Source of the DNA: Candidatus Scalindua sp.
Lineage (GTDB): Bacteria; Planctomycetota; Brocadiia; Brocadiales; Scalinduaceae
Length of the DNA stretch: 32,000 bases
Direction: 5' to 3'
Assembly: GCA_031316235.1 (NCBI GenBank)
Contig: JALDRA010000001.1
Location: 1,440,001 to 1,472,000 of the forward strand
The notes beneath the pieces were generated by a model, which had not been told where the DNA came from, did not search any database, and saw only the letters and a program-made list of their open reading frames with translations. The number at the start of each line of letters is the position of its first letter. Within the stretch, counting starts at the first letter, position 1. The position numbers and the translations under genes were made by a program. Positions 14,322 to 30,351 of this stretch are shown one piece after another.

Positions 14322-14327
14322 TTTCTC

Positions 14328-15491
14328 CTATACAACCATCTGTATCTCACGAGAGGCCCTTACAGGAAAAGGTATTCGTGCGATTGCGATTGTTACGTTT
14401 TTTTTGTAGCCATCTTCTTTATAAACTTGCTTTGGTACAATTAACTCATTGGTACCGGCAGATAACATCGCACTTGGTTCAGCTACCCCGTGTGTGCCCA
14501 CATGCTTTTTTACCGTAACTGACGGCGTGGGAATGTTTTTAACAGTATCTAATTCATCCGCACGGTAAGAAGTAAATTCCCATGCATATTTCTCTTTTAA
14601 CTGCAAAAAGGCTTCTTCATCAGCTTTGATATCGATTGTTGCAAATCCCTTGATACATCTAAACTCCAGATGATTCTCTTCTAACACCTTGCTGACACCA
14701 CGTTCGACCATTTCCACCGGTGTGTCCCGGTCGCATCCCATACCGAGGATCAAACTTTTAGGTCGGTAAATAACCGCATGTTCATAGATATCCGGAAAAA
14801 GCCTTTTTATATCCCGATCGGTTGCTATCAGGATAACAGAAAAATCTTCAAAGGAAATACCATCTAAACTTGTTGCATATTCAATTCCCCAGGGTAATCC
14901 ATTTTCCTCCGGCCAGAAATTCTTCTCCCCCGTCTCTTGAACAAATAAAACATTCTCCTGGTTGACAACAGCCGCACATGCTCTGGTCACATTTCGGTCA
15001 GTGTCATCTAATATCCAACCCAACTCACGCCCGAGAATATCCAACGGGAATGTCTGACCCACATCGGATGCAGTGGTAATAACAGGTGTATTTTCTAAAA
15101 TATTTGATACTTTATTCGCATATTCATTCCCGCGACCGACATGGCCGGACAAAACAGGTATTGTAAATTGTGCTTTATCATCCACGCAAATAATCGCTGG
15201 ATCATTTTTTTTGTTTCTTAATAAAGGTGCAATCATACGCACCACAACACCAATACTCATGATATGAATATGCGCGTTATATTGATTGAATGTAGCATGA
15301 ATTGTTTCTCTCATGGGCATACTTAAAAGGTAAACACGGTCCATCTGTAGTTGGTTCTCAAACTTATGTGTCACATAGATGTCGGCATCATCCAGTTGGT
15401 CACGCAGCTTGCGGGCAATTTCCACTCCGTGTTTAGTGATTACATAAATCGCCCAGGATTTACGGTTTGCCTTAACCTTTTTATTCACCAT
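14328..15491 (-). CDS. cbiG: Cobalt-precorrin-5A hydrolase CbiG
   Basis: CbiG-like N-, middle and C-terminal regions (AIYVITKHGVEIARKL..., SGHVGRGNEYA, ...GVAEPSAML). I prefer the ATG at 15491 over the TTG at 15527 given in the track. Confidence 0.85.
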   Translation of the reverse strand: MVNKKVKANRKSWAIYVITKHGVEIARKLRDQLDDADIYVTHKFENQLQMDRVYLLSMPMRETIHATFNQYNAHIHIMSIGVVVRMIAPLLRNKKNDPAIICVDDKAQFTIPVLSGHVGRGNEYANKVSNILENTPVITTASDVGQTFPLDILGRELGWILDDTDRNVTRACAAVVNQENVLFVQETGEKNFWPEENGLPWGIEYATSLDGISFEDFSVILIATDRDIKRLFPDIYEHAVIYRPKSLILGMGCDRDTPVEMVERGVSKVLEENHLEFRCIKGFATIDIKADEEAFLQLKEKYAWEFTSYRADELDTVKNIPTPSVTVKKHVGTHGVAEPSAMLSAGTNELIVPKQVYKEDGYKKNVTIAIARIPFPVRASREIQMVV

Positions 15492-16227
15492 TCCCAAATA
15501 GTACCCCGCTGTGATTTTTTTTGGCAATCACAACCATGGAAAAATAAATACCGCGTTTGCCCTTTATGGTGCGCATATCTGTAACGATCTGTTCCTTGTC
15601 CATGGTAGCATTGGCCACATAAACAGATCTGTCCAGGAGCCCCTCGGATTCGATGACCTCGACAATCTCCGTAATTACGGGAGAAGCCTTCATCAATATG
15701 ATAGTGTCAAACATGCGGATGATCGTGCGCAAATCATCCTTGTTATAAGCCGCTGGTATAATGGCTATCTTTTCTTGTCCATCAGCAACAGGGATACCGG
15801 CGGCAATAGGCGCAGCTGTAATGGAAGAAACCCCGGGGATTACCTTGATCTCAATTTCTGGCCATGATTTTTGTGCGTGTTCATAAAGGTAAATAAACGA
15901 GCTATAAATAAATGGATCTCCGACGGATATAAAGGCAACACTTTTTCCAGCAAAAATCCGATCTTTAATTTCTTTGACAGCTATATTCCATGCGCAAGTT
16001 GTGATCTTCGGATCACGGGACATGGGGAAACTGAGAAATAGCCTTTCCTGTCCCTGTACCGAACCTACCGTTTCCTCGGCGATGACCCATGAGACAGATG
16101 TGCTCTTTTCATCCTTTCGTGGAAGAATAATGCAGTCTACTTTTCTTAAACAATCTAATGCCCTCAACGTCATCAAATCCGCAGCTCCCGGCCCAAGACC
16201 AACACCATATAAAATTCCATGCCTCAT
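15481..16227 (-). CDS. cbiL: Cobalt-precorrin-2 C20-methyltransferase CbiL
   Basis: 248 aa. Shows LYGVGLGPGAADLMTLRAL, SVGDPFIYSS and IPGVSSITAA, typical of CbiL/CobI. Confidence 0.88.
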   Translation of the reverse strand: MRHGILYGVGLGPGAADLMTLRALDCLRKVDCIILPRKDEKSTSVSWVIAEETVGSVQGQERLFLSFPMSRDPKITTCAWNIAVKEIKDRIFAGKSVAFISVGDPFIYSSFIYLYEHAQKSWPEIEIKVIPGVSSITAAPIAAGIPVADGQEKIAIIPAAYNKDDLRTIIRMFDTIILMKASPVITEIVEVIESEGLLDRSVYVANATMDKEQIVTDMRTIKGKRGIYFSMVVIAKKNHSGVLFGNGE

Positions 16228-17505
16228 TCAGTTCCTCTCGACTTTTGTGACTGTAAATATATGAATCGGACTTAAGGCTTCATAACGGTGGTACTGTGCC
16301 AGCGGTACGCTTCTTGCAATATTCACGACAAGCATCTCAGCATACCATCCATAATCTTTAAAGTATTGATATGTTTCTTGTACGGTTTCCAAGGCGATTG
16401 CAGTGACAACGCATCGTCCATGCAGTGTTAATTTCTCTAAACTCACATCCAGAATTTCTCTTATGTTTCCCTTGCTACCTCCGATAAAAACAGCATCTGG
16501 CGCTGGCCAGTCCATGATAGCACCAGGGGCCAAACCTTCGGCAATATCAATATTGTCTACTTTATGCTTGATTGCATTCTCCCTGGCAATTTCAATACAC
16601 TCAGAGTCAAAATCAACAGCATAGACGTGTCCTTCATAAGCAATTTTGGCAGCCTCAATTGCCACCGAACCTGATGCCGTTCCGATATCCCAGACGATAG
16701 ATTTTCTATTCAAGCCTAGAGAGGCAATGGATAGTGTACGTATTTCGCGTTTGGTAATCAGCCCTTTGTGTGGTATTCGTTTAGCAAATGCATCTTCGTG
16801 TAAATTAGCAATCGTGGGAGGCAGTGACTTGTCTTCATCTTTACGAAGCAGAATTAAAACGTTAAGTGAAGCAGTATCATCTACTCGAGATAATTCCTCA
16901 ATCGAAAAACAGCGGATCCGTTCGTCCACACCGCCTAAATTCTCGCAAACCCAAGCTTGCCAGCCGGTTTCGTTATAGGTAATCATGTGTTTAGCTATCA
17001 CTTGAGGCGACTGTTCCGGGTCCGTTAAGATCCCTACCTTTGAAGATGTCTGTATTTTAGTTATAAACCCTGTTCTGGAACGTTCATGCAGACTGATGAT
17101 CATAGCGTCATTCCACGTAATCCCTATGCGGGAAAAGGCTATCTGGATGGAACTGGGATGCGTAATCACATCAACGTGATCCAATCCAAACTTTTTAACA
17201 ATCAATCCACCGACTCCATAAAACATGGGATCTCCTGATGCCAGGACGACAATATTATTTTCATAAGAAAGTTCCTCCAACCGATCTATCACGTCAGAGA
17301 GCTTACCTTGAAACGGAATTTTCAGACCTTCAAATTCGGCAAAGAATTCAAGATGTCGTGCACCACCGACAAGGACCTGCCCCTTGCTGATCGCATGCAT
17401 TGCTTTGGATGTTAAGCTCAAACACCCATCATCACTCATGCCGATAACCGTGATCGTTTTGGTACGCTTCAAAACCGGTCGACTTTTCTTTACTAATGGA
17501 ATCAT
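16228..17505 (-). CDS. cbiET: Fused cobalt-precorrin-6B/7 methyltransferase-decarboxylase CbiE-CbiT (CobL-like)
   Basis: N-terminal tetrapyrrole-methylase domain (VIGMSDDG..., LASGDPMFYGVG) plus a C-terminal SAM-MTase domain (VWDIGTASGSVAIEAA). The ATG at 17505 forms an ATGA overlap with the cbiC stop. The track start at 17511 is a TTG. Confidence 0.88.
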   Translation of the reverse strand: MIPLVKKSRPVLKRTKTITVIGMSDDGCLSLTSKAMHAISKGQVLVGGARHLEFFAEFEGLKIPFQGKLSDVIDRLEELSYENNIVVLASGDPMFYGVGGLIVKKFGLDHVDVITHPSSIQIAFSRIGITWNDAMIISLHERSRTGFITKIQTSSKVGILTDPEQSPQVIAKHMITYNETGWQAWVCENLGGVDERIRCFSIEELSRVDDTASLNVLILLRKDEDKSLPPTIANLHEDAFAKRIPHKGLITKREIRTLSIASLGLNRKSIVWDIGTASGSVAIEAAKIAYEGHVYAVDFDSECIEIARENAIKHKVDNIDIAEGLAPGAIMDWPAPDAVFIGGSKGNIREILDVSLEKLTLHGRCVVTAIALETVQETYQYFKDYGWYAEMLVVNIARSVPLAQYHRYEALSPIHIFTVTKVERN

Positions 17506-18182
17506 ACGCAAGACTCTTCCTTTTTGCGTGATAATAAAAGGAGTGCGTGGATTATAGAGACGACAATAGTCGTCCCTCCCTTACGACCCTGACTGATAAT
17601 ATAAGGGACATCCAGAGACAATAACTGCTCTTTAGATTCAACTGCATTAACAAATCCGACAGGGACGCCGATAACCAATGCCGGCTTTGCACCTTCTTCT
17701 TTGATCAACCTGACTATTTCAATAAGTGCCGTAGGCGCATTACCAATGGCAACCACTGACCCGTTAAGTTTCCCTAAACGCATCGCTTTTTGCATAGACA
17801 TTATTGCACGTGTTGAATTATTGATCTTGGCCGCATCAACCACGTCGGCATCAGAGATATAAGATTCTACCCGGCAGCCGTAAGAATCCAGTCTTTTTTG
17901 ATTCAATCCGGCAGTAATCATCTTAACATCAACGATAATGGAGCAACCGTTTTCAAGCGCGGTAATCCCGACTTCAATAGCGCGGCCATGGAACTTAAGG
18001 ATATCCTTAAACTCAAAGTCTGCTGTTGTGTGGATCACCCTTCGGATGACTTCCCACTGATCTGTACTAAAATTATGCGGACCTGCCTCGTGGTCAATAA
18101 TGAAAAAACTTTCATCTTCAACTTGACGACCCATAGTCGTCATTTGTCTCATATCACTATCAAGTAACGTATGATCTGACAT
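17502..18182 (-). CDS. cbiC: Cobalt-precorrin-8 methylmutase CbiC
   Basis: 226 aa. Shows VIHTTADFEF, GNAPTAL and GFVNAVESKE motifs of CbiC/CobH. Confidence 0.9.
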   Translation of the reverse strand: MSDHTLLDSDMRQMTTMGRQVEDESFFIIDHEAGPHNFSTDQWEVIRRVIHTTADFEFKDILKFHGRAIEVGITALENGCSIIVDVKMITAGLNQKRLDSYGCRVESYISDADVVDAAKINNSTRAIMSMQKAMRLGKLNGSVVAIGNAPTALIEIVRLIKEEGAKPALVIGVPVGFVNAVESKEQLLSLDVPYIISQGRKGGTTIVVSIIHALLLLSRKKEESCV

Positions 18183-19285
18183 TAACGGTTCTCCTTTTCT
18201 GAAAACTGCGCTAATAAGTGCCCCTTAAAATCAAACAGATAAACAAAGACCCTGCATTGTTCTTGAATATAGTTTTCAGTTACCCTGGCCACTAATCGGC
18301 AAAGATTTGTTCCAAACTCCTTAATATTTGCTTCCTGAATCAACTCTATGACATGCCTGGCTGTATTGGCCCCTTTGATCTGTTCGCATGTACCTGAATC
18401 AGCCCCACCCTCTTCGGCAAGTTTTGCTAATAAATCCATATTCACTTCTGAACCGGCCACATGCGTCTGCATCTTTCCGTCCGCCATTTTTGACAATTTG
18501 CCAATCATCCCGACAATGTAGATGAGTTTAATAGATGTACGCGCAGCACTTTTTAAAGCGGTTCCAATAAAATCTCCGGCTTGAATAAAACTCTCTTCCT
18601 TGAAAACAGGAAAAAAATCCATGGCAAATTTTTCAGTCCTGCTCCCCGTTGTAAAGACAAGTTCTCGGATCCCCTGTGCGTGCGCCACATTAATTTCCTG
18701 AACTAAACTGGCCTTGTAGGCAGCTGTAGAATAAGGTTTTACGATTCCGGTTGTTCCCAGTATGGATATTCCATTAATAATTCCCAATCGTTCGTTAATT
18801 GTTTTCTTAGCTCGCTTTGCCCCATCGGGAACACTGATAATGACCTGAGCCCCTTTGTATTGTTTAACAGAAAGCTCTTCTAAGACCATCTCATAGATGT
18901 TTTTACGCGGTATAGGTGTAATTGAAGGAGCACCAATATCCAAACCTAACCCCGGCTTCGTAACCTTACCTACACCCTCTCCATTGATTAAAGTAATTCC
19001 CTCTTCTTCTGTTAAATTAACTGTTGTCGTAATTTCAGCGCCATGTGTGCAATCAGGATCATCCCCCGCATCTTTAATAATACTGGTGATAACTACACCA
19101 TCTCTTTTTTCACAGCGCTTTAAAGGAAATGTAACCTTTTTGCGATTTGGCAATGTGGTTTTTATTTCCGATAATTTTTTCCCTGTCACCAGATAGCGTG
19201 TCGCCGCCTTTGCACTTGCTGCTGCACAGGCTCCCGTGGTAAATCCGGTTCTACGCCCTCTCTTATTCCGTGCCGGCAGCGTCAT
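18182..19285 (-). CDS. cbiD: Cobalt-precorrin-5B C1-methyltransferase CbiD
   Basis: 367 aa. Shows RRTGFTTGACAAASAKAA, DAGDDPD.THG and ILGTTGIVKPYS motifs of CbiD. Confidence 0.9.
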   Translation of the reverse strand: MTLPARNKRGRRTGFTTGACAAASAKAATRYLVTGKKLSEIKTTLPNRKKVTFPLKRCEKRDGVVITSIIKDAGDDPDCTHGAEITTTVNLTEEEGITLINGEGVGKVTKPGLGLDIGAPSITPIPRKNIYEMVLEELSVKQYKGAQVIISVPDGAKRAKKTINERLGIINGISILGTTGIVKPYSTAAYKASLVQEINVAHAQGIRELVFTTGSRTEKFAMDFFPVFKEESFIQAGDFIGTALKSAARTSIKLIYIVGMIGKLSKMADGKMQTHVAGSEVNMDLLAKLAEEGGADSGTCEQIKGANTARHVIELIQEANIKEFGTNLCRLVARVTENYIQEQCRVFVYLFDFKGHLLAQFSEKENR

Positions 19286-20030
19286 ATGATTTTTCTCTCA
19301 AGCGATGTTCAAAAAGATCAAAAAACAAAGGATCTTCTCCCAGTGTAGTCGCCAGTTTAATGGTTAGATCAGGGAAATTCTGTGCATAGCGATTGACGAG
19401 CACGCCAAGTCGTTGAAACAATAAACCGTTAAAAATCAAATAAGGTTCCAATAAAATAGACCTGTAACCTTCTTTAATAAGGTGATTAAGAGTTTCTTCA
19501 ACAGACGGTTTTGCCATGGCAATAAAACCGTGACCCACTCGCTTGTAATCTGCCTTTTCTGTAACCAGTCGTACTAATTTACAAAAATCACTGGTTGCAT
19601 CTGGATCACTGGATCCGCGGCCTATCATCAAAACAGCAGCATCTGATGTGTCGATTGCATGCACAGCACATACTTGGACAATTCTTTTGTTCACTAAATC
19701 CACCATTTTATGATCTACCCCCATGGCTTGGGATAAATAAATTTTTTTATCTCTAAAAGTGTCCATGGTCTCGTTTACAACATCCACAATATCATGCTTG
19801 ATATGTTCTGCCGTTAATAAGAATAAGGGCAGTACCGAAACCTCTTCGGCACAAGCTAATGCATCATGGAGCGCATCCCTCAAACCTGGTTTTGCCAACT
19901 CAACAAAAGCGGTTCTAAAATCATAATCGGGAGCCCTCCTGGCAAATTGTTCTACAAAATGTTCAAAGGCATCATTGGATTTCTGAACACGGCTGCCGTG
20001 TCCCACAACAATAACAATATTTTTAGGCAT
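19263..20030 (-). CDS. cbiX: Sirohydrochlorin cobaltochelatase, CbiX type (two-lobe long form)
   Basis: From ATG 20030: MPKNIVIVVGHGSRVQKSNDAFEHF... plus a second-lobe LMIGRGSSDPDA motif. The 65-codon N-terminal extension in the track would overlap cbiA and starts inside it, so I rejected it. Confidence 0.82.
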   Translation of the reverse strand: MPKNIVIVVGHGSRVQKSNDAFEHFVEQFARRAPDYDFRTAFVELAKPGLRDALHDALACAEEVSVLPLFLLTAEHIKHDIVDVVNETMDTFRDKKIYLSQAMGVDHKMVDLVNKRIVQVCAVHAIDTSDAAVLMIGRGSSDPDATSDFCKLVRLVTEKADYKRVGHGFIAMAKPSVEETLNHLIKEGYRSILLEPYLIFNGLLFQRLGVLVNRYAQNFPDLTIKLATTLGEDPLFFDLFEHRLREKSYDAAGTE

Positions 20031-20034
20031 AAAT

Positions 20035-21435
20035 CTACCCCTCGTTTTTTTGTAATTTGTAAAAGTCTTGTGCTTTTGCAAGAAAATGCCTTGCTCTTTG
20101 AGGGTACGAAAGGAAGTGACAGTGTACATAACTAGCCAGAACATTATTAAAACAATATCCTTCGTCCCGCTCTTGTCCCTTTCTTTTTTTGACTGATCGA
20201 TGGATGGCAGCAACACCTTCACCACTCCATTGTGAATAGTGAAATTCGTGTCCGCGAAATTGTTCTCCCTTACGACCTAAGAAACAATCATCAAGCATTT
20301 CATTTTCACAATATCCAAAGTTCACAAGTTTTTTGTTCATTTCAATTTGTCCGGGAATTATCCCAAGCATGGGGAAGACTTGGCCGTCTAAAGATTTTAT
20401 GGATTCAGCCAGGTAGATAAGCCCTCCGCATTCGGCATACGTGGGAATGCCATCTTTAATGGCCTGTTTAATTATAACACACATGTCCTGGTTTTCTTCA
20501 ATTTCTTTAGCATAAACTTCCGGAAAACCACCGCAAAAATAAAACCCATGTATATTTTCTGGTAATGTCGTATCCTCAAGCGGACTAAACGCGATGAGTT
20601 CGGCGCCACAATCTTTTAAAAAATCCAGATTTGCCTGATAATAAAATTGAAATGCACGGTCATAAGCATAGGCAATACGAATGGGTTCCTGGGGTAATGT
20701 TGCTTCAGGTATAATATTGAATGGCTTAACAGATAATGATTCCTTTTGTGCTGTTTTTGCATGGATCATGATTTGATCGAGGTCAATATTTTGGCAGCAC
20801 CCTTCCAGTCGTGTTAAACAATCATGCAGTTCTTCATTTTCAGAGGCTGTTTTCAGGCCAAGATGACGTTCCGGGATCATAATGTCTTCATTCTTAAAGA
20901 GGGCACCCAATACCGGAATATGATTATATGCTTCAACCGCCTCAGTTAATAAAGCCAAATGACTCTCCCCGGCAACTTTATTTAGAATCACACCGCAAAT
21001 ATGGATATCCGGATCCAGTGTTTGATAGCCCTTGATCATGGCTGCTATTGAGCGTGCCATTTTACCAGCATCCACGACAAGAATAACAGGCGTCTTTAGC
21101 AATTTGGCTATGGCAGCGCTGCTACCCTCATCGGTTGTTGGTGATACACCGTCAAACAGACCCATAACACCCTCGATAACGGCGATGTTACAATCCTGGG
21201 ACGTCTTCTCAAACAACCACTGACATGCGTCTTTACCCATCATCCAGTCATCCAGGTTATGCGATACTCGGTTAGTCGCAACCGTGTGATAACTCGGATC
21301 AATATAATCAGGACCTACTTTATAAGCCCCGACACGTAAGCCGGCCCTGATTAATCCAGCCATGATCGCCAGTGTGACTGATGTTTTTCCGACGCCGCTG
21401 TGCGTTCCGCCAATCATGATTCGAGGTATACTCAT
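20035..21435 (-). CDS. cbiA: Cobyrinate a,c-diamide synthase CbiA
   Basis: 466 aa. N-terminal ATP-binding GTHSGVGKTSVTLAIMAGL, a C-terminal glutamine amidotransferase region (AECGGLIYL, GHEFHYS). First gene of the minus-strand cbi operon. Confidence 0.9.
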   Translation of the reverse strand: MSIPRIMIGGTHSGVGKTSVTLAIMAGLIRAGLRVGAYKVGPDYIDPSYHTVATNRVSHNLDDWMMGKDACQWLFEKTSQDCNIAVIEGVMGLFDGVSPTTDEGSSAAIAKLLKTPVILVVDAGKMARSIAAMIKGYQTLDPDIHICGVILNKVAGESHLALLTEAVEAYNHIPVLGALFKNEDIMIPERHLGLKTASENEELHDCLTRLEGCCQNIDLDQIMIHAKTAQKESLSVKPFNIIPEATLPQEPIRIAYAYDRAFQFYYQANLDFLKDCGAELIAFSPLEDTTLPENIHGFYFCGGFPEVYAKEIEENQDMCVIIKQAIKDGIPTYAECGGLIYLAESIKSLDGQVFPMLGIIPGQIEMNKKLVNFGYCENEMLDDCFLGRKGEQFRGHEFHYSQWSGEGVAAIHRSVKKRKGQERDEGYCFNNVLASYVHCHFLSYPQRARHFLAKAQDFYKLQKNEG

Positions 21436-21490
21436 ATTCTGCTTTTATCTGAGAATTTATGAAAATGAATTTATATCTTTATCGGCTTCA

Positions 21491-21519
21491 AAGATATAAC
21501 GATGGGCACACCGTGTCAA
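21491..21519 (-). promoter_or_regulatory. Candidate sigma70-like promoter of the cbiA-cbiF operon
   Basis: On the minus strand, TTGACA (21519-21514) is followed after 15-17 nt by TATATC/TATCTT (21498-21491), about 55-85 nt upstream of the cbiA ATG. Sequence pattern only. Confidence 0.3.
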
Positions 21520-21749
21520 CCCATTTTTTATGGAGTGTCAGATCATGGGTTTTTTCTCCATATCTATACAGGTGACAAATGGAAAGGTGTAAGTTTATGT
21601 CAGACTTAAGATTCTCGATTCCAATGACAATTACCTGATTTCATTGTCTGATATTCTTGCTATTTAAAGTACGCTGATAAAACCCTAGTTAAATAGTTAT
21701 TCGAAAATCACATAAGGAATTTGCTGAAAAGTGTTTAAATAGTTTCTAC

Positions 21750-21777
21750 TTGACAATAATTCTCCTGTCATTATATT
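21750..21777 (+). promoter_or_regulatory. Sigma70-like promoter for the btuB leader (riboswitch copy A2)
   Basis: TTGACA 21750-21755, a 16-nt spacer, TATATT 21772-21777. Same architecture and partial sequence similarity (TTGACAAYAATT) to the promoter at 8951. Confidence 0.45.
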
Positions 21778-21802
21778 AAATGTAAATTTTGTACTGATTG
21801 CT

Positions 21803-22067
21803 GTACTTTGAAAATTTAAATCCATTTACGGGTGTTCGCTAACAACAACTGCTGTTAGCGGCATAATAGGGAAGTCCCTTAAAGGGCACGGACCCGCCGC
21901 TGTAATCGGCTACTAAGACTGCATTTCACGATTTGTTTCGTGATAACAGGCCACTTCTCCCGGCTTTGACCGGGGTGGGAAGGCGCAGTCATCAGGATGA
22001 CCCGATAGTCAGAAGACCTACCCGTAGATGCTTCACGTTGACTCTTCGAAGGTAAAGAAGGTGAAGG
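21803..22067 (+). promoter_or_regulatory. Cobalamin riboswitch (copy A2), near-identical duplicate of A1
   Basis: 21803-22019 equals 9000-9216 with one mismatch (C at 21829 vs T at 9026). The B12 box reads AGTCAGAAGACCTACC (G to A at 22020). Similarity decays until the shared GGTAAAGAAGGTGAAGG at 22051-22067. Confidence 0.85.
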
Positions 22068-22100
22068 AAAGAGACGTCTTTTATTATTTAACCAATATAG

Positions 22101-22137
22101 AACCCGAATCTTCCCATCGAAGATTCGGGTTTTTTTA
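22101..22137 (+). terminator. Intrinsic terminator following riboswitch A2
   Basis: Perfect 12-bp stem AACCCGAATCTT / AAGATTCGGGTT, a 7-nt loop, and a T7 tract. The sequence is unrelated to the A1 terminator. Confidence 0.85.
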
Positions 22138-22254
22138 TTGGTGAAACAAATCACCCCGTAAAACCCGCAAAAGACACAAAAAATATTTCCATAGCATTTC
22201 GTGGATAATGAAGGCAATCATTTGAGTTAACATTTTAATAAAACTTTTATTTTA

Positions 22255-22445
22255 TGTGAGATATAAGGGAATCCCTGCCGAGTTAAAACTCGGTTAACGG
22301 GAGCTGCCCCGCAACTGTAATCGGTGACGAAATCTGCAAAATGCCACTGGATATCAGCCGTTTAAGCGTTTTAAACTGTTTATACGGCTTCCCGGGAAGG
22401 TGCAGATACCAGGATGATCCGAAAGCCAGGAGACCTGTCTTACAC
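22255..22445 (+). promoter_or_regulatory. Cobalamin riboswitch (B), second and sequence-distinct aptamer immediately upstream of btuB
   Basis: Shows AAGGGAATCCC...GCTGCCCCGCAACTGTAATCGG, GCCACTGG, CCGGGAAGGTGCAGA and the B12 box AGCCAGGAGACCTGTC. ATCTGCA/TGCAGAT helix. It ends about 35 nt before the btuB ATG, with a GAGGGG Shine-Dalgarno in between. Confidence 0.9.
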
Positions 22446-22480
22446 GTTTTTTAATTTTTTTCCGAGGGGAAAGATGTTTT

Positions 22481-24415
22481 ATGAAAAATTGTTTAATCGT
22501 AGCATTTGCAGCACTGATTGCACTCCTGCCAGTTATCGGCTATTCAGAGAGTAATACTCTTACCAGAGAAAATAGTGAGAGTGGAAAAACAGGAAAGGAT
22601 AAAAATGCTCCCGTAGAACCTGAGACAGATGATATCCAGGAAATCGTAGTAACAGCAACAAGGACGGAAACACCCACGAGTCAGTTGATAGATTCAGTTA
22701 CCACGATTACCGAGAAACAGATTGAACAACAGAAGGCGAGAACCGTTTTTGAAACCCTTCGCAGTGTACCGGGATTGAGCATACAAAAGTCCGGAGGCAT
22801 CGGGAGAACAACAAGTGTATCATTACGTGGTTCCAGTGCTGATCAGGTTCTGGTCATGATTGATGGTGTCCAGGTGAACAGCCCCACCACAGGATCTTTC
22901 GATTTTGCAAACCTGACCACTGACAACCTGGAAAGCATAGAGGTCGTAAGGGGCCCGCAAAGTACTCTGTACGGCTCCGATGCAATGGGTGGTGTAATAA
23001 ACATCATTACGAAAAAAGGGAAGGGAAAACCACAGTTCAGTATACGATCAGAAATTGGGACACCGGAGAGAACTTTTAATGAAGCAATCAGCTCAAGCGG
23101 CAGTATCGAAGACTTTCATTATTCCGTAGATATGGCAAGGATTGACAGCGATGGCCGCGGTGCTGACGACGATTATGACAAGTGGAACATGTCCGCAAGA
23201 CTTGGATACAAACTCAACGACAAGTTACAGTTTGATACAAGCTTACGATACAATTACTCCAAGGTGGGTATCGACGACGGACCTTTCATGCAGGACCCCA
23301 ACAGGTTATCCAAAAATCAGGACATGGTAATTACTTCTCTCCTGACCCATTCGATAACAAACTGGTGGAGCCATAAACTGAAATTTTCCTATACCGCTTC
23401 AAACCTGAAAAGCAGGGACAAGCCGAATTCCGCTGCTTCAGACCCATTTGGCACTTCGAGATTCCGGCTCGATACCCAGATCTATACCGGAGATTATCAG
23501 CACACCCTGAGGTATAAGGAGATCAACACCTTCATATTTGGCTTTGAATTTGAAGACCAGGAGGCAGACAATCGAAGCGTTGATCCAGCCCTGGTCAACA
23601 GAGGCTGGTACGTTCAGAATCAATTGAAACTATGGGATAGATTCTTCTTCAATGCCGGAGTGAGAGTTGATGACAACAACACCTATGGAAAGGCCGTGAA
23701 TCCCAAATTTTCCGTTGCCTATCATCTCAAGGAAACAGATACAAAATTCAAGGCCAATTACGGGAAAGGGTTCAGGGGACCGACTCTCAATGAGTTGTTT
23801 TTCCCCGATTTCGGTGACCCGACTCTGGATCCGGAGGAGAGTGAGAGCTATGATTTTGGTTTTGAGCAATACCTGCTTGAGGACAGGCTCTTTTTTGGCG
23901 TAACCTATTTTAATAACAGATATTCAAACCTTATTCAGGCAGTCGATACCGGCGGATTTATCTTCAGGGCACGAAATATCGGTATGGTCAGGACCGAAGG
24001 TGTAGAGGCAGAAATCGTAATTAAACCCTTTGAGGGGCTAACCATGAGGGGTACGTTTACGAGGTTACATACCAGAGATGAGTTGAAAAAGGAGTTGATC
24101 AGGCAGCCAAGCAAGCAGGGTTCCGTTACTATTAATTATAGCTTTTTAGATAAATTTAACCTTAACATTGATAATACCATTGTCGGAAATTCAAGAGAGG
24201 GGAGAAACGGTGGAGGCATCAAACCACCTGGAAGGCCTGTTATCAGGACTAACGACGGCTATTTCAAACTTGACGTAGCATTTACTTATCAGCATTCAAG
24301 ACATTTTCAATTATATTCCAGGATTGAAAACATGGCGAATCAGAAATTCGATGAGGTATTAGGCTTCAGGTCACCAGGGGCAAGGTTCTTTCTTGGAGTA
24401 AAACTTAGCCTATAA
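22481..24415 (+). CDS. btuB: TonB-dependent outer-membrane corrinoid receptor (BtuB-like)
   Basis: 644 aa. Signal peptide, TonB box (IQEIVVTATR), plug domain (RGS...VLV.IDGV..N, RGPQSTLYGSDAMGGVINIITK), and a beta-barrel ending in a terminal aromatic-rich strand. Directly downstream of B12 riboswitches. Confidence 0.9.
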   Translation: MKNCLIVAFAALIALLPVIGYSESNTLTRENSESGKTGKDKNAPVEPETDDIQEIVVTATRTETPTSQLIDSVTTITEKQIEQQKARTVFETLRSVPGLSIQKSGGIGRTTSVSLRGSSADQVLVMIDGVQVNSPTTGSFDFANLTTDNLESIEVVRGPQSTLYGSDAMGGVINIITKKGKGKPQFSIRSEIGTPERTFNEAISSSGSIEDFHYSVDMARIDSDGRGADDDYDKWNMSARLGYKLNDKLQFDTSLRYNYSKVGIDDGPFMQDPNRLSKNQDMVITSLLTHSITNWWSHKLKFSYTASNLKSRDKPNSAASDPFGTSRFRLDTQIYTGDYQHTLRYKEINTFIFGFEFEDQEADNRSVDPALVNRGWYVQNQLKLWDRFFFNAGVRVDDNNTYGKAVNPKFSVAYHLKETDTKFKANYGKGFRGPTLNELFFPDFGDPTLDPEESESYDFGFEQYLLEDRLFFGVTYFNNRYSNLIQAVDTGGFIFRARNIGMVRTEGVEAEIVIKPFEGLTMRGTFTRLHTRDELKKELIRQPSKQGSVTINYSFLDKFNLNIDNTIVGNSREGRNGGGIKPPGRPVIRTNDGYFKLDVAFTYQHSRHFQLYSRIENMANQKFDEVLGFRSPGARFFLGVKLSL

Positions 24416-24433
24416 AGCAGGAGATGAGTTGTT

Positions 24434-25417
24434 ATGCAAAATGAATCCTTCAACAATACAATTATGAATCAAAATACTCACATTACGCTGTTCTTTGTTT
24501 TCTGGTTTATTCTGACACAATGCAGTCTGATTGCGCATGCAGGGCCTGTAAATTCAGGAAAAACAAAAACCTTTATGGACGATACTTCCTTTTCTCTACA
24601 GTTTGATAATCCGCCTCAGCGAATTATTTCTGTTTCCCCGAGTGCAACAGAAATGTTAGGAGTTATTGATGCGGATTCAATGCTGGTAGGAGTTTCGCTG
24701 TATTCTTATTATCCTCCTTCTGTCAAAAACCTTCCAAAGGTGGGCAGTTATGTTAATCCCAATATTGAACAAATCATCTCCTTAACTCCTGATCTGGTTG
24801 TCATGTCCTTTGAGGGAGCGCCGAGGAGTGATGTAAATCATCTACGGAGGCTGAATATAAATGTCGCAGTCTTACGCAGTGAAAAATTTTCTGATATTAT
24901 AAAAAACATTAACTGGCTCGGAGAGGTCTTAGCACATCAGAAAGAAGCAAAAGAAGCGGTGGATAATTTAGAGACCCGTTATGAACGAATTCGATCCCTG
25001 GTTCAGGGAATACCAAAGCCCCGTGCTTTTTATTCAATCGCCCTGAATCCCATAACATCCGTTGGGGCCAAAAGCTTTATTAACAGTCTGATTCATGATG
25101 CAGGAGGAATTAACATTACCGGGGATATCGATCAGGCATATCCCCGGTTAACCATAGAAAGTGTTATTGCCATGTCGCCGGATGTTCTGCTGTTTTCAAG
25201 CGGTATGGGCAATGAGCTTGACATGGAAAATCAGATGCCTTTCTGGAAGCGTTGGAATAATATCCCTGCCGTACGCGACCAGAGGTTCGTTGAAGTCAAT
25301 CATGACATCATCAATCGTCCTGGTCCAAGAGTTGTCGAGGCACTGGCTTCAATAGCTCAACAATTTCATCCTGAAAAAGCAGAGTCGATTCAAAGGATTA
25401 TGGATTGTGGAAAATGA
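24434..25417 (+). CDS. btuF: Periplasmic corrinoid-binding protein of ABC importer (BtuF-like)
   Basis: 327 aa. N-terminal signal/anchor, RIISVSPSATEML and PDLVV motifs of cluster A-II (BtuF/FhuD-type) binding proteins. AGGAG Shine-Dalgarno 10 nt upstream. Confidence 0.85.
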   Translation: MQNESFNNTIMNQNTHITLFFVFWFILTQCSLIAHAGPVNSGKTKTFMDDTSFSLQFDNPPQRIISVSPSATEMLGVIDADSMLVGVSLYSYYPPSVKNLPKVGSYVNPNIEQIISLTPDLVVMSFEGAPRSDVNHLRRLNINVAVLRSEKFSDIIKNINWLGEVLAHQKEAKEAVDNLETRYERIRSLVQGIPKPRAFYSIALNPITSVGAKSFINSLIHDAGGINITGDIDQAYPRLTIESVIAMSPDVLLFSSGMGNELDMENQMPFWKRWNNIPAVRDQRFVEVNHDIINRPGPRVVEALASIAQQFHPEKAESIQRIMDCGK

Positions 25418-26421
25418 AAAACCGTAAAATATTGTTGTTCACGATTCCGTTTTGCTGGATCTTTATTTTTTTACTCTGTTGGAAATCCGGCACGGTAATA
25501 ATTACCTGGGCACAACTGAAAAACACGCTCTTTGGAGCGGCGCCTGCTGAACAGACTAACATTATATTATTGAAGGTGCGGTTGCCCAGACTGCTTCTGG
25601 CTGCACTTACCGGCGCTGCTCTGTCTTTAACCGGAGCCGTTTTTCAGGCATTACTGCGAAACCCGCTTGCTGATCCCTATATCCTCGGGATTTCCGGCGG
25701 CTCGGCACTGGGTGCGGTGATCGCCATGGGCTTTGGTTTACATTTGATGATTATCGGTTTTCAAATTGTCCCGATTTTTTCCATATGCGGTGCACTTTTA
25801 ACCATACTGTTTGTATATAATTTTTCCCGAATCGGCAATTATTTACCGACGCAGACGATGCTGCTGGCCGGTATTTCATTACAGGCGATGCTCTCCGCAT
25901 TAATTTTGTTTCTGCAAACACTGATGGACCCCTTACAATTGATGCAGGTTTTTACCTGGTTAATGGGAAACATACCAACTCCGGAATACGGAAATTTATT
26001 ATGGATTTTTCTCTATTCTGTTCTGGCAATCGGAGTGATCCTCCCGCAGGCTCGGAATCTCAACGCACTTACTCTGGGAGAACTGGATGCCAAAATTGTT
26101 GGTATTGATGCGGAACGATTAAAAAAGACTCTTTTTTTCGCCTGCTCGCTTTTAACCGGAAGCATAGTCGCTTTAACCGGGCTAATCGGATTTGTAGGGA
26201 TCATCATCCCACATTTATTACGATTGTTAGTTGGGCCTGATCACAGGCGTTTATTGCCCGCCTGTGTTGTTGCCGGCAGTATTTTTATGGTTGTTGCCGA
26301 TACCCTGGCACGTTCACTGCTTTCACCAACTGAAATTCCTGTTGGTGTTATCACCGCTCTTGTCGGTGGGCCGTTTTTTTTGTTTTTACTATGGAAAAAT
26401 AAGCGTAAGGGAATGCGATGA
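25414..26421 (+). CDS. btuC: ABC importer permease, FecCD/BtuC family
   Basis: Polytopic protein with RLPRLLLAALTGAALSLTGAVFQALLRNPLADPYILGISGG and GIIIPHLLRLLVG. The ATG at 25414 makes an ATGA overlap with the btuF stop. The track start at 25405 is a TTG. Confidence 0.88.
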   Translation: MKNRKILLFTIPFCWIFIFLLCWKSGTVIITWAQLKNTLFGAAPAEQTNIILLKVRLPRLLLAALTGAALSLTGAVFQALLRNPLADPYILGISGGSALGAVIAMGFGLHLMIIGFQIVPIFSICGALLTILFVYNFSRIGNYLPTQTMLLAGISLQAMLSALILFLQTLMDPLQLMQVFTWLMGNIPTPEYGNLLWIFLYSVLAIGVILPQARNLNALTLGELDAKIVGIDAERLKKTLFFACSLLTGSIVALTGLIGFVGIIIPHLLRLLVGPDHRRLLPACVVAGSIFMVVADTLARSLLSPTEIPVGVITALVGGPFFLFLLWKNKRKGMR

Positions 26422-27254
26422 ACGAACAATATAAAAACGTAACGGTTGAGCAGCTTTCTTATTCGTATACAGAAACTCCCTTTATTCATGATCTGTCTTT
26501 TGACTTTAAGGCAGGAGAATTGTTCAATGTTGTCGGTCCTAACGGAGCCGGTAAATCCACACTGTTATATCTGCTTGGCGGGATTATCAAACCACAGGCT
26601 GGACAGGTTTTACTGGGTGGCATACCGTTATCCTCTTTTAAACGTCAGGCACTTGCCAGAATAATGACTATCATTCCGGCTGAGTCAAATATTGCATTTG
26701 ACTTCACTGTGTATGATATCGTATCCATGGGGCGTTATCCTTATCATAGTCCACTCGATTCTCTAACCGTTAACGACCGTGAAATAATAAGGGAAGTTAT
26801 CGAAAGGACCGGATTAACGAAATATACAGATAAGATTTTTAACCGGCTTTCAAGCGGTGAAAGACAGCGGGTCTTAATTGCCCGGGCTTTGGCACAGAAA
26901 ACATCTATTTTATTGATGGACGAACCGACTGTCCACCTGGACATTCATTATCAATTGGATATTTACCGGCTCGCACAATCCCTTGCACATGATAAGAATC
27001 TATCTGTTTTCATGATCTCGCATGATTTAAATTATGCATCGATATATAGTGACCGTATTATGTTAATGAATGAAGGACGTATCGTCAAAACCGGCACTCC
27101 TGATGATATTTTCCAGCCGGAACTGCTCAGTGATGTTTACGGTACCGCATTGTCTGTTTATCCCCACCCTGAAACAGGCCAGCCTACTATCTGGCCCCGG
27201 GTAATAAGCGGCAGTATCATAAACAAGATGACAACCCCCGGTGAACTTTTGTGA
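26418..27254 (+). CDS. btuD: ABC importer ATPase (BtuD/FepC-like)
   Basis: Walker A GPNGAGKST, signature LSSGERQR, Walker B ILLMDEPTVHLD. ATGA overlap with the btuC stop. Confidence 0.88.
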   Translation: MNEQYKNVTVEQLSYSYTETPFIHDLSFDFKAGELFNVVGPNGAGKSTLLYLLGGIIKPQAGQVLLGGIPLSSFKRQALARIMTIIPAESNIAFDFTVYDIVSMGRYPYHSPLDSLTVNDREIIREVIERTGLTKYTDKIFNRLSSGERQRVLIARALAQKTSILLMDEPTVHLDIHYQLDIYRLAQSLAHDKNLSVFMISHDLNYASIYSDRIMLMNEGRIVKTGTPDDIFQPELLSDVYGTALSVYPHPETGQPTIWPRVISGSIINKMTTPGELL

Positions 27255-27315
27255 TTATTAATTTCCGCTATACACCAGAAAAAACGTGAGTTACTATCAA
27301 AGTAAAAAAGGACAC

Positions 27316-28464
27316 ATGGCAATGTTAATAGGAATACATGACGGGTTTGAAATACACCGCAAAGAAAAAATTATCTGTGTCAACTTTCTTGTTCAACACA
27401 GGGTGATTTCTACGTGCGGAGTAAACGGAGGATTACGTGACGATCTGGAGGGTATCGCTAATCATCAATTATGCGAGCCTCTGGGGCACGATAGAAAAGG
27501 ATTGAAGGTTATAGCCGAAAGTCCTTTTGATTATTTAAGGTCGGTTTGTGAAAAATACGGACTCTCTCCTGAAAAAAGGGCGCTCCTTGGCACTGCTGCA
27601 AACATGAACTTCGCTGCAGTGGAACCGCTGGAATATCGAGGCCTTAAGGTAGTGGCGATAAGTACGGGAGGTGTGAAAACAAACGCCGGCAGAGCCGGTG
27701 ACCCTGCAAATAGGTATGAAAAGGACGGTAAATTTATTAGTACACAAGGTGAAGTTGATGAACCTCGTGGGACAATAAACACAATAGTTATTATGAATAA
27801 AGAACTCACGCATGGAGCTATGGTCGGGTCGCTTGTTACCGCCTCCGAGGCAAAAGCCGCAGCTCTTCAGGAACTTGCTGTTAATTCCCGTTATTCATCC
27901 AGGCTAGCTACCGGAACGGGAACCGATCAGATTGGCATTGCGTCAAGGCTGACCGGAGAAATTCCCCTGACCAGCGCAGGTAAGCACACGAAGTTAGGTG
28001 AACTCCTGGGTTTGACGGTACAAAAGTCCATAAAAAAAACCCTGGCATTACAGGATTCTCTCACCCCTCAGAGTCAGCGCTCAGCCAAAATTCATCTAGA
28101 ACGATTCGGAATTGATACAAAATCAATGAAGGAAAAAATCTGCACTCTTCTGAATGAAGAAAAGTCTAAACTGCTTGAAAAGAATTTTGCAACTATTAAC
28201 CGTGATCCCGTTACTGTCGCCGCAACTTCCGCACTTGTTCACTTGCGTGATAAAATAGAGTGGGGAATCTTACCGGAAAACTGTCTACCCGAAATCTTTT
28301 CGTCCTATGGGGCACAGCTCAGTGCATCCATTTCAGGAAAGTTTGAGAGGATAGACTATTATCGGGAACGTCTTTCTCATGAACACATGGGAATCAGCAG
28401 TCATACGTTCACTAACTTCATTTGTAAATCATTCGCTCTGGGGTTTAATGAAAAATGGGAATAA
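27316..28464 (+). CDS. cbiZ: Adenosylcobinamide amidohydrolase CbiZ with a ~140-aa C-terminal extension
   Basis: CbiZ-like blocks VISTCGVNGGL, TAANMNFAAV, GTINTIVIMNKELTHGAMVGSLVTASEAKAAALQEL and TGTGTDQIGIA in the first ~250 residues. The remaining ~140 residues are not recognised. Start is ambiguous (GTG 27286 in the track, ATG 27316 or 27322). Confidence 0.8.
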   Translation: MAMLIGIHDGFEIHRKEKIICVNFLVQHRVISTCGVNGGLRDDLEGIANHQLCEPLGHDRKGLKVIAESPFDYLRSVCEKYGLSPEKRALLGTAANMNFAAVEPLEYRGLKVVAISTGGVKTNAGRAGDPANRYEKDGKFISTQGEVDEPRGTINTIVIMNKELTHGAMVGSLVTASEAKAAALQELAVNSRYSSRLATGTGTDQIGIASRLTGEIPLTSAGKHTKLGELLGLTVQKSIKKTLALQDSLTPQSQRSAKIHLERFGIDTKSMKEKICTLLNEEKSKLLEKNFATINRDPVTVAATSALVHLRDKIEWGILPENCLPEIFSSYGAQLSASISGKFERIDYYRERLSHEHMGISSHTFTNFICKSFALGFNEKWE

Positions 28465-28512
28465 GAGCATTGGAACAAAATTTTGCAGGGAAGATTCAGA
28501 ACCGGGAAACAC

Positions 28513-29214
28513 ATGAATAATCAAAAATTTTCTTTTGCCTGTTCATTTAGCGGCGGTAAAGATTCATGTCTTGCCATATACCGTGCTATACAGGCTGGGG
28601 GTGACGCAAAAAAACTCATTACAATGTTTGCTGAGGGTGGCGAGCGTAGTCGTTCTCATGGTTTACCCCTCTCTGTAGTGACTGCGCAATCACAAGCCAT
28701 GAACATACCTTTGCTCACACAGGCAACATCGTGGAATGATTACGAAAAGCACTTCACCGCCGCTTTAACATCTGTAAAGAAAGAAGGCGTAAAGCACATT
28801 GTTTTCGGTGATATCGATTTACCGGAACACCGCGATTGGGAAGAACGTACCTGTTGTGGAGTAGGGCTGCACCCTTTTCTTCCCTTGTGGCGAGAAGAGA
28901 GAAGATCACTCCTGAGAGAATTTATTGAACTTGGGTTTTGTGCCATGATCATTGCCGTTAAAGAGAATATTTTGCCGGCATCTTTACTTGGTAAAACACT
29001 CTCGCGCACAGTGATTGAAGAAATTGAACGCCAGGGTGTGGATGCATGTGGCGAAGAAGGAGAGTACCATACGCTTGTATATGACGGTCCCCTTTTTCAG
29101 TCAACACTGCAGTTTACACAGGGAGAAGTGGTGCTTCGAGATGGTTATTGGTTTTTGGATCTCCACGTACACAATAAACATATAACCCCTCCGCGAATAT
29201 CGTGGAATTGTTAA
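28513..29214 (+). CDS. Dph6/MJ0570-type N-type ATP pyrophosphatase (PP-loop ATPase, diphthine-ammonia-ligase-like domain)
   Basis: PP-loop SFSGGKDS at residues ~13-20 from ATG 28513. FGDI and the C-terminal GEEGEYHTLVYDGPLF motif are characteristic of this family as I recall it. The track start at 28483 is a TTG. Confidence 0.72.
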   Translation: MNNQKFSFACSFSGGKDSCLAIYRAIQAGGDAKKLITMFAEGGERSRSHGLPLSVVTAQSQAMNIPLLTQATSWNDYEKHFTAALTSVKKEGVKHIVFGDIDLPEHRDWEERTCCGVGLHPFLPLWREERRSLLREFIELGFCAMIIAVKENILPASLLGKTLSRTVIEEIERQGVDACGEEGEYHTLVYDGPLFQSTLQFTQGEVVLRDGYWFLDLHVHNKHITPPRISWNC

Positions 29215-29226
29215 GAAGGGGATAAA

Positions 29227-29346
29227 ATGGAAATACAGGGTACGGAAAAAGGCATACGTGTATCACGCTCATCCTGGATAACTATTGCCGTAACTTTAAT
29301 AGGTAAAGAACTATTCTACTATAGATGGAGAAAGGGGAGGAAATAA
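29227..29346 (+). CDS. Candidate 39-aa small membrane protein, translationally coupled to exbB
   Basis: Below the track's size cutoff. My translation is MEIQGTEKGIRVSRSSWITIAVTLIGKELFYYRWRKGRK. AAGGGG Shine-Dalgarno 6 nt upstream. Its TAA (29344-29346) overlaps the exbB ATG (29346) as TAATG. Confidence 0.3.
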   Translation: MEIQGTEKGIRVSRSSWITIAVTLIGKELFYYRWRKGRK

Positions 29347-29960
29347 TGCTGAATCTCATTCTAAAAGGTGGCCCGGTAATGTACCCGCTGCTGATTTGTT
29401 CACTTATCTCTCTTACAATCACTATTGAGCGAATTATCTTCTGGTCGAATGAAACAAGAAGGACAGACCGTAAACTGCTGGATCAGGTATTCGGTGAGAT
29501 TGAAAAGGGGTTTTATGATAAAGCCATTGCTCTGGGTAATACATCAAAAGATTATATGATAAAAATAGTGTGTTATGCGCTTACACATCATAAATCTTCC
29601 AGGATAAACATGCTGGAAATGGCGGCAGAAGATGAGATAGACAGGATGAAACGGGGCATGGCAATCCTGGATACCATAATAACCATGGCACCCCTGCTCG
29701 GGATTCTGGGTACCGTTACCGGAATAATAGTGTCATTTGATTTTCTCGGAAAGGCCGGTGTAGAAGATCCGAAGGCCGTTACCGGAGGGATAGCCCAGGC
29801 ACTGATTACTACCGCGGCTGGCCTGACTATAGCCCTTGCTACCATAATCCCATACAACTATTTTGTTGTCAAGCTGGAACGGGCTGCACGAAATATAGAA
29901 AAGTGTACAACAAGTTTCGAAATATATCATAAAGAGGGCAGAGATGAAGATAAATCTTAA
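29346..29960 (+). CDS. exbB: MotA/TolQ/ExbB proton-channel protein ExbB
   Basis: From ATG 29346: MLNLILKGGPVMYPLLICSLISL..., three TM segments, and the conserved LGILGTVTGII...GIAQALITTAAGLTIA region. Confidence 0.88.
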   Translation: MLNLILKGGPVMYPLLICSLISLTITIERIIFWSNETRRTDRKLLDQVFGEIEKGFYDKAIALGNTSKDYMIKIVCYALTHHKSSRINMLEMAAEDEIDRMKRGMAILDTIITMAPLLGILGTVTGIIVSFDFLGKAGVEDPKAVTGGIAQALITTAAGLTIALATIIPYNYFVVKLERAARNIEKCTTSFEIYHKEGRDEDKS

Positions 29961-30351
29961 TCTGAGAAGAAAGGGGCCCAGGATAGAGATGATACCACTG
30001 ATTGATGTCGTCTTTCTCCTACTGGTCTTTTTTATCTATGCAATGCTTTCCATGGTAGTGCATCGCGGATTTAAAGTGGATCTTCCGCAGGCGACAACGG
30101 CGGAGATAGACAAGGAAGATTATGCTTCAATTACCGTAGATAAGGATAACAGGGTACTTCTTGACAAGGAAGAGATCCTGATCGAGAACCTTTCTGAAGA
30201 AGTAAAGACAAAGATTAAGAAGGGTGTTAAGATATTTATTAATGGTGATAAAGAAGCCGACCTCGGAGTCGTAATAAACGTACTTGATATCTTGAGAAGG
30301 GACGAGATACAGGAAGTGTACTTTGAGACACAAGCTGTTGAGTATAAATAA
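29944..30351 (+). CDS. exbD: Biopolymer transport protein ExbD/TolR
   Basis: 135 aa with the IEMIPLIDVVFLLLVFFI N-terminal TM and a periplasmic domain. Overlaps the exbB 3' end by 17 nt. Confidence 0.88.
   Translation: MKINLNLRRKGPRIEMIPLIDVVFLLLVFFIYAMLSMVVHRGFKVDLPQATTAEIDKEDYASITVDKDNRVLLDKEEILIENLSEEVKTKIKKGVKIFINGDKEADLGVVINVLDILRRDEIQEVYFETQAVEYK

Follow-up and report, generated by a model that had tools for sequence, protein, structure and literature searches.

Two cobalamin riboswitches in series before btuB in Scalinduaceae: a probable transcriptional checkpoint followed by a translational one

Why should a single operon for vitamin B12 uptake be preceded by two cobalamin aptamers, and do both of them act on the same transcript? 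This question is raised by the btuB leader found in a 32,000-nucleotide (nt) stretch of the Candidatus Scalindua sp. genome (assembly GCA_031316235.1, contig JALDRA010000001.1, positions 1,440,001 to 1,472,000), hereafter called the window. A first-pass annotation, made from the letters of the DNA, had described a promoter-like site, a complete aptamer (A2) with its own terminator and a second, sequence-distinct aptamer (B) just upstream of btuB, and had proposed two readings: a single transcript with two checkpoints, or an orphan riboswitch RNA made from A2. An Rfam scan of the whole window detected only three matches to any family above threshold, each to the cobalamin family RF00174 (gathering score 31.5 bits) and on the + strand: A2, B and A1, a twin of A2 located upstream of cbiMNQO. 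All three cover the full model (positions 1-189 of 189), and both A2 and B, whose scoring against this family had been suggested, lie far over the threshold, at more than twice the gathering score. The elements of the btuB leader and the operon that follows it are:

21750-21777, + strand: sigma70-like promoter of the btuB leader, TTGACA-N16-TATATT, 11/12 matches.
21813-22039, + strand: distal cobalamin aptamer A2, RF00174 70.8 bits, E 9.5e-16, model positions 1-189.
22030-22067, + strand: P13-like bipartite helix around the purine box GGTAAAGAAGGTGAAGG (22051-22067), GCUUCAC/GUGAAGG plus CUUC/GAAG, from the consensus structure.
22099-22136, + strand: intrinsic terminator of A2, 15-bp stem 22099-22133, loop CCAUC, T7 at 22130-22136.
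22137-22209, + strand: variable spacer with no credible open reading frame (ORF) and no significant structure (z 0.07).
22210-22254, + strand: conserved pre-B motif GAAGGCAATCATTTGAGTTAACATTTT...TTTTAT, conserved in 8 loci, a poor sigma70 match.
22233-22456, + strand: proximal cobalamin aptamer B, RF00174 74.8 bits, E 6.9e-17, P1 at about 22255-22261 with 22438-22444.
22457-22474, + strand: U-rich hairpin UUUUUUCC-GAGG-GGAAAGA, obtained by folding, overlapping the btuB ribosome-binding site and its Shine-Dalgarno (SD) sequence.
22481-31251, + strand: operon btuB, btuF, btuC, btuD, cbiZ, PP-loop ATPase, exbB, exbD, tonB, from profile matches.

The layout drawn by the first-pass annotation was thus recovered with small shifts. 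Its A2 (21803-22067) takes in the leader and the P13-like helix in addition to the RF00174 core, its terminator (22101-22137, 12-bp stem, T7) proved to have 15 pairs, its B (22255-22445) lies within the RF00174 match, and the promoter-like site, the btuB ATG at 22481 and the salvage gene cbiZ (PF01955, 189 bits) were all found. The two aptamers are 64% identical in a global alignment, compared to 58 +/- 2% for shuffled B, and have no common word longer than 10 nt, which is why they are called sequence-distinct. In both, the conserved core (B12 box, GGGAA, GCCACU) and the helices are present and upheld by covariation in the RF00174 alignments, as 15 of the 55 consensus pairs of the A-type aptamer show compensatory changes among 14 orthologues, and 9 of the 47 pairs of B among 11 orthologues. 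The gap between the two Rfam matches is 193 nt, within the 300 nt used to define tandem riboswitches (PMC9481103). The leader thus places two complete riboswitches in series before one ORF, A2 with the terminator and B with the SD hairpin as expression platform, and their structures predict a bi-mechanism tandem, with a transcriptional switch first and a translational one after it.

This arrangement was followed in 17 btuB leaders of the Scalinduaceae, namely those of the window, L001-L011, L030, L138, L150, L172 and L177. Retrieval with BtuB assigned the window to Candidatus Scalindua, an anammox planctomycete, the closest BtuB being 87% identical; a scan of metagenomes with the 17-mer GGTAAAGAAGGTGRAGG returned mostly random matches, from which local blastn recovered at least four further tandem loci, among them L138, L150, L172 and L177, and at least seven cbiM leaders. 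The tandem layout is present in 16 of the 17 leaders, with the order promoter, A, terminator, B and btuB conserved, whereas the btuB leaders of the outgroup contain one aptamer each according to Rfam. Two aptamers were found by Rfam in L001-L004, L007, L008, L010, L011 and L030. In L005 and L009, B is present but scores below threshold (about 23 bits) because a 185-nt insertion interrupts it. The inserted sequence folds as one long hairpin (z about -8), and no Rfam family was matched to it in an E-value scan. This insertion (L005 2196-2380, L009 2160-2345) is 85-90% conserved between the two genomes and occupies the site where A-type aptamers have a short extra hairpin. The sole exception is L006, from which aptamer B is truly absent: between 2053 and 2500, about 440 nt of GC-rich repeats separate btuB from the distal switch and its terminator, so that only the A unit precedes the gene. 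L006 either lost aptamer B or never had it. It should be noted that the gene upstream of A varies, being the divergent cbiA in the window and a + strand gene in L138 and L150, while btuB always lies downstream, which links A to btuB.

Are A2 and B then served by one promoter or by two? In 13/13 loci examined, a sigma70-like site matching the consensus at 10-12 of 12 positions precedes the distal aptamer by about 35-60 nt. By contrast, the best match between the terminator and B reaches 7.5-10.5 of 12 at positions that are not homologous among loci, and no comparable or positionally conserved promoter was found there in these 13 loci. The best candidate in the spacer of the window (9/12) has a -10 hexamer without A at position 2, and its start would fall inside P1 of B. 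The length of the spacer differs widely among the orthologues, from about 11 nt (L008) and 53 nt (L004) up to about 300 nt; as it is so short in L008 and L004, B should be reachable there only by read-through. As the first-pass annotation had held, no credible ORF lies in the spacer before btuB: the only ones are short and unsupported, a 32-amino-acid ORF and a 112-amino-acid ORF overlapping the aptamer and without family match, both on the minus strand. In two loci, L005 (about 1995-2065) and L011 (about 2170-2245), the spacer between A and B contains a palindromic element (GACAAGATAACAGGAT ... ATCCTGTTRATCCTGTC), which bears the best sigma70-like match of any spacer, TTGACA-N18-GATATT in L005.

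The pre-B motif deserves separate consideration. Lying just 5' of P1 of B, it contains an SD-like part, GGAGGYRAT (GAAGGCAAT in the window and a perfect SD, GGAGGTGAT, in L003 and L011), then TTG-NNN-TAA at typical spacing and then an A/T-rich stretch; TTG-NNN-TAA could be read as a two-codon mini-ORF or as a -35-like hexamer. If this motif were a second promoter, weak or dependent on an alternative sigma factor, it would feed B and btuB in the lineages that have it, and A2 would gate only the transcripts initiated upstream. Its conservation in eight loci although the content of the upstream spacer differs, and the presence of TTGAGT or TTGCAA with a T-rich hexamer about 17 nt downstream (8-9.5 matches out of 12), are compatible with such a role. 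However, the critical A is absent from position 2 of the -10 candidates, transcription would start within or at the 5' strand of P1 of B, the TTG is replaced by TTA in L150, and the motif is missing from L001, L002, L004, L008 and L010, in which B is intact. We therefore consider a dual promoter unlikely.

Regarding the distal aptamer, P1 of A2 is a continuous helix of 12 bp (21823-21834 with 22019-22030, -17.7 kcal/mol). The G to A difference from A1 at 22020 had been thought to weaken this helix, and A2 to be decaying or to have an altered set-point. In fact, the substitution turns U.G into U-A at the inner end of P1, and A occupies the equivalent position in six orthologues (pair counts U.G 8, U-A 4 and C-A 2), where it pairs U-A in three and faces C in L005 and L150. 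With this helix and a base that recurs among orthologues, A2 is not decaying, and the idea of a weakened P1 was refuted as well. Downstream of A2, the terminator at 22099-22136 is the only terminator-like site on the + strand between 21400 and 22600. Its sequence, AACCCGRAUCUUCCCAUCGAAGAUYCGGG followed by a U-run, was recovered in 13/13 leaders read directly, with two stem pairs altered on both sides (A-U to G-C).

Between the aptamer and the terminator, directly 3' of P1, the P13-like helix (consensus GCUUCAC/GUGRAGG plus CUUC/GAAG) sequesters the purine box GGUAAAGAAGGUGRAGG. This element is nearly invariant in the btuB-distal units and in seven cbiMNQO leaders of related genomes, so that the A family amounts to one shared promoter-aptamer-P13-terminator design. 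Five of the eight cbiM-type units were scored (A1, L059, L063, L135 and L140); in each, the purine box pairs specifically with the 5' arm of the terminator over 9-10 bp at -14 to -17 kcal/mol, with a z of about -2 compared to shuffled boxes, and is thus predicted by folding to be a classical antiterminator in these five units. The helix and its SD-like purine box AAAGAAGGUGA are kept almost unchanged in 24 A-family units despite widely differing insertions in L5, P2 and P6, and the start of the terminator loop, CUUCCC, is likewise conserved; to judge from these alignments, such conservation appears to exceed the needs of a plain terminator/antiterminator. The P13-like loop of L011 contains an inserted hairpin (CTCCGTTAGAATTTGTTTCTTTACGGGG, about 27 nt, at about 2010-2050) that duplicates GGTAAA, showing that this loop tolerates insertions. 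A leader peptide initiated after the SD-like purine box was also considered and rejected: a 13-codon ORF exists in A1, but a start codon is missing at this place from A2 and from the cbiM orthologues.

A unit with its own promoter and terminator could also be a gene in its own right. The second proposal of the first-pass annotation was indeed that A2 is an orphan riboswitch producing a stand-alone RNA of about 330 nt, with EutX and Rli55 as precedents. In the form considered here, A2 would be the gene of a B12-responsive, trans-acting small RNA of about 350 nt, and B alone would control btuB. The strength of the promoter, the very strong terminator, the lack of an evident A2 antiterminator, the unusual conservation of the platform including CUUCCC and the presence of a divergent cbi biosynthesis operon without its own riboswitch could all be explained in this way. 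Nevertheless, the unit is co-oriented with and adjacent to btuB in 17/17 loci whatever the upstream neighbour, so that a same-strand ORF always follows it; B of L008 has no room for a promoter of its own; the A unit of L006 is the sole riboswitch before btuB; and at cbiMNQO the homologous platform serves for ordinary control in cis. No module for a trans target was identified, and neither an ANTAR regulator nor eut genes were seen among the ORFs of the window, where no dedicated motif search for a trans module was made. An orphan RNA is thus unneeded to account for the locus and, in our view, very unlikely.

The expression platform of B is of another type. The aptamer ends at most 25 nt before the btuB start codon, and no terminator was detected 3' of B, either in the terminator scan of 21400-22600 or in the other loci. 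Instead, the 3' strand of its P1 is followed by a hairpin of 8 bp with the consensus U6CC-GAGG-GGAAA(A)GG, nearly invariant in 13 loci and located 7-15 nt from the start codon. Because this U-rich hairpin covers the Shine-Dalgarno and no terminator follows, B is predicted to gate translation, with the SD hairpin as its putative translational expression platform.

Taken together, these comparisons lead us to favor, as the probable reading of the locus, a single transcript on which A2 would act as a transcriptional checkpoint and B as a translational one. This is the first of the two proposals of the first-pass annotation, and it gains support from a promoter conserved before A only, the constant order of the elements with btuB always downstream, the short spacers of L008 and L004, and a platform of B that covers the Shine-Dalgarno and has no terminator. 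According to this model, one promoter (21750-21777) would drive the btuB-btuFCD-cbiZ-exbBD-tonB operon through both switches in series. A2 would be a transcriptional OFF switch: upon corrinoid binding, P1 and P13 would form, then the terminator, yielding an RNA of about 350 nt that ends at 22136. Transcripts reading through would carry B, whose SD hairpin would gate the initiation of btuB translation. Such a same-ligand, bi-mechanism or pseudo-cooperative tandem would repress the uptake and salvage of corrinoids more tightly and more steeply under B12-replete conditions.

Several observations weigh against this model. In the btuB-distal units, the duplex between the purine box and the terminator is limited to -8 to -12 kcal/mol and does not outperform shuffled controls, and in folds of truncated transcripts the minimum free energy partner of the terminator arm differs among loci: the tail of the purine box and the conserved GAUACG pair with it in about half of them, and the partner lies elsewhere in the others. 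For these reasons, the purine box was rejected as the antiterminator of A2; the termination arm of the A2 model is solid, and the regulated antitermination arm, hence regulated read-through, is one that we infer. A kissing loop between L5 and L13 has no covariation support either, L5 varying freely while P13 and L13 are invariant. The pre-B motif of about 45 nt, with its TTGAGT-like hexamer, may act, in the lineages having it, as a promoter that is weak or uses an alternative sigma factor. Lastly, we infer that the aptamers bind their ligand, that the polarity is OFF, that transcripts read through and that B controls translation; the first two are assumed by analogy with the behavior of the riboswitch family, and co-transcription of A2 and B is suggested by the comparison of loci.

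Do the two aptamers sense the same molecule? Since the A family is common to cbiM leaders, A2 and B are taken to come from different riboswitch lineages and, by this comparison, appear to have evolved independently. On a single transcript, they might thus prefer different corrinoids, e.g. a complete cobamide versus cobinamide or a lower-ligand variant, so that uptake and CbiZ-based salvage would respond to the quality of corrinoids as well as to their quantity. In addition to their separate lineages, the low identity of A2 and B (64%, against 58% for shuffled controls), their differences in P5/L5 and peripheral insertions, and the presence of CbiZ in the operon would fit such a two-input gate, and cobalamin riboswitches are known to vary in corrinoid selectivity (PMC9600662). 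On the other hand, the same full-length RF00174 model fits both aptamers, including the B12 box and the P6 extension, no sequence feature was tied to selectivity, and the same source reports, as far as it was consulted, that most cobalamin riboswitches assayed respond broadly (PMC9600662). A two-input gate is attractive in view of cbiZ; in our opinion, it is quite unlikely.

Further information on the A family came from the twin unit upstream of cbiMNQO, which the first-pass annotation had rightly recognized. A1 and A2 are 98% identical over 9000-9233, where they differ at five positions. The features of the A1 leader are:

8940-9348, + strand: twin unit A1 before cbiMNQO, a chimera, with a btuB-type promoter (8951-8978) and a cbiM-type terminator (9308-9348).
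9010-9236, + strand: aptamer of A1, RF00174 72.3 bits.
8940-8999, + strand: promoter segment, 80% identical to the L002 btuB promoter and 28% to the cbiM type.
9000-9216, + strand: segment 98-100% identical to A2.
9217-9263, + strand: 3' strand of P1 and P13, 96% identical to the cbiM type and 79% to A2.
9308-9348, + strand: terminator, closest to the cbiM type.

The CbiM proteins of L059 and L140 are 82% identical to that of the window, which indicates that their leaders are orthologous to the A1 leader. In a neighbor-joining tree, A1 is found beside A2 within the btuB-distal clade, and the true cbiM aptamers are 55-69% identical to A1. Across the 24 A-family units, P1 shows type-specific covariation, CAUUUACGGGU being paired with RCCCGUARAUG in the btuB type and GGUUACAGGUA with UGCCUGUAAUUG in the cbiM type. 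P1 of A1 associates a btuB-type 5' strand with a cbiM-type 3' strand; it is interrupted and, at -8.3 kcal/mol, the weakest of the 24. The mosaic of segments and the tree thus designate A1 as the derived copy, in which a btuB-type promoter and aptamer were recombined onto the platform native to cbiM; the 3' junction lies at the boundary between the B12 box and P1. The aptamer-P13-purine-box-terminator design itself is found before cbiMNQO in A1 and in seven orthologous leaders. Two other explanations of the A1/A2 differences were dismissed: they are not compensatory substitutions after duplication, as the four 3' ones are native cbiM-type sequence beyond the breakpoint, nor drift in A2 after duplication, as the differences at 22020-22028 are the 3' edge of the A1 recombination tract. 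A broader proposal is that the aptamers sense different corrinoid species, one of them complete cobamides and the other incomplete or non-cognate corrinoids, in a gate on import and remodelling through BtuB-BtuFCD-CbiZ and that, in addition, the promoter-aptamer module of the A family is a portable cassette recombining between leaders, of which the A1 chimera is an example. This is in our opinion improbable; such a cassette would permit rapid rewiring of B12 regulons.

Repeats were also observed in these leaders. About 135 nt in the interval from the A1 terminator to cbiM are enclosed by a perfect inverted repeat of 20 nt (9370-9389 / 9526-9545, GTCCGGTTAGGTTTTTGCA...), and part of the interior (about 9468-9493) matches the reverse complement of a GC-rich repeat of L006 (2122-2147). 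It looks like an element of the MITE (miniature inverted-repeat transposable element) kind landing in riboswitch leaders. Another repeat of about 58 nt (83-90% identity), with the small hairpin TCGGATTTTATCCGA, occurs at 8775-8833 and 31741-31799 in the window and once, inverted, directly after the distal terminator of L001 (2112-2169); it probably represents an intergenic repeat that is dispersed in Scalindua genomes.

Regarding the operon downstream of B, the btuB product is a TonB-dependent receptor with Plug and beta-barrel domains, whose best match is the B12 receptor model TIGR01779, under the curated cut-off. Between cbiZ and exbB, 28483-29214 encodes a PP-loop ATPase that is diphthamide-synthase/Dph6-like (PF01902, 160.9 bits), an unusual companion for B12 salvage genes. 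On the minus strand, 12742-21435 contains a nine-gene anaerobic cobalamin operon (cbiA, a cbiK/X-like chelatase gene, cbiD, cbiC, cbiET, cbiL, cbiG, cbiH and cbiF) preceded by a TTGACA-N17-TATCTT site (21519-21491) and a short leader. The Rfam scan of the window revealed no riboswitch on the strand of this biosynthesis operon; within the cluster, riboswitch control is thus limited to cobalt uptake and corrinoid uptake.

Anammox bacteria rely on corrinoid enzymes and live in communities whose members exchange corrinoids. Control of a corrinoid import and salvage operon by two checkpoints, if it operates as proposed throughout the family, would suggest an unusually tight hold on uptake, and the locus would be a well-conserved natural test case for the combination of transcriptional and translational control by switches of the same ligand class, so far described mainly for S-adenosylmethionine (SAM). 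A1, for its part, is a datable natural swap of an aptamer domain. Its junction coincides exactly with the border between aptamer and expression platform, which is direct evidence of riboswitch module exchange by recombination, and it offers a natural variant with a weakened P1 for set-point studies. We found no publication dealing with cobalamin riboswitches of anammox bacteria, Scalindua included.

How does this tandem compare with known systems? Tandem adenosylcobalamin (AdoCbl) riboswitches have reportedly been known since Sudarsan et al. in 2006. The first-pass annotation was correct in calling tandem arrangements rare, since AdoCbl doublets occur in less than 1% of AdoCbl-regulated untranslated regions (PMC2258182); doublets of this kind are already catalogued (PMC9481103). 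The portions consulted of the survey by Sherlock et al. (2022) list 26 AdoCbl doublets, filed there as pseudo-cooperative with no analysis of mechanism or phylogeny (PMC9481103). The Scalindua leader resembles them in having two complete cobalamin riboswitches with their own platforms, a gap below 300 nt, a terminator and no ORF between the aptamers. It differs from them by the combination of a terminator with a ribosome-binding-site switch, by aptamers of two lineages instead of a local duplication, and by its conservation throughout the Scalinduaceae. The closest mechanistic parallel lies in the SAM-II/SAM-V tandem of 2009 and related SAM pairs, for which, and not for AdoCbl, the same portions of the survey document a transcriptional switch followed by a translational one (PMC9481103). 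There, as described in that source, the first riboswitch terminates transcription, the second governs how accessible the ribosome-binding site is, the ligand is the same, and the aptamers share related structures but differ in sequence (PMC9481103). However, SAM-II and SAM-V are separate Rfam classes that bind SAM, whereas A2 and B both belong to RF00174, with a corrinoid as ligand.

Each half of the tandem also has a counterpart. B is similar to the btuB leader of E. coli and Salmonella, where a cobalamin aptamer adjoins the gene of a TonB-dependent B12 receptor and its platform sequesters the ribosome-binding site, but in the enterobacteria the leader contains one aptamer only, and no terminator switch lies upstream. 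A2 is similar to EutX of Enterococcus and Rli55 of Listeria, in which an AdoCbl aptamer likewise has a promoter and a terminator of its own and gives a short RNA when B12 is present. In EutX and Rli55, however, there is no cis ORF and the read-through form has ANTAR-binding hairpins that sequester EutV, whereas the read-through product of the Scalindua unit would be the btuB mRNA and no trans module was seen. The Scalindua tandem therefore belongs to an already known architecture, made somewhat unusual by its mixed mechanisms, its aptamers of two lineages and its family-wide conservation.

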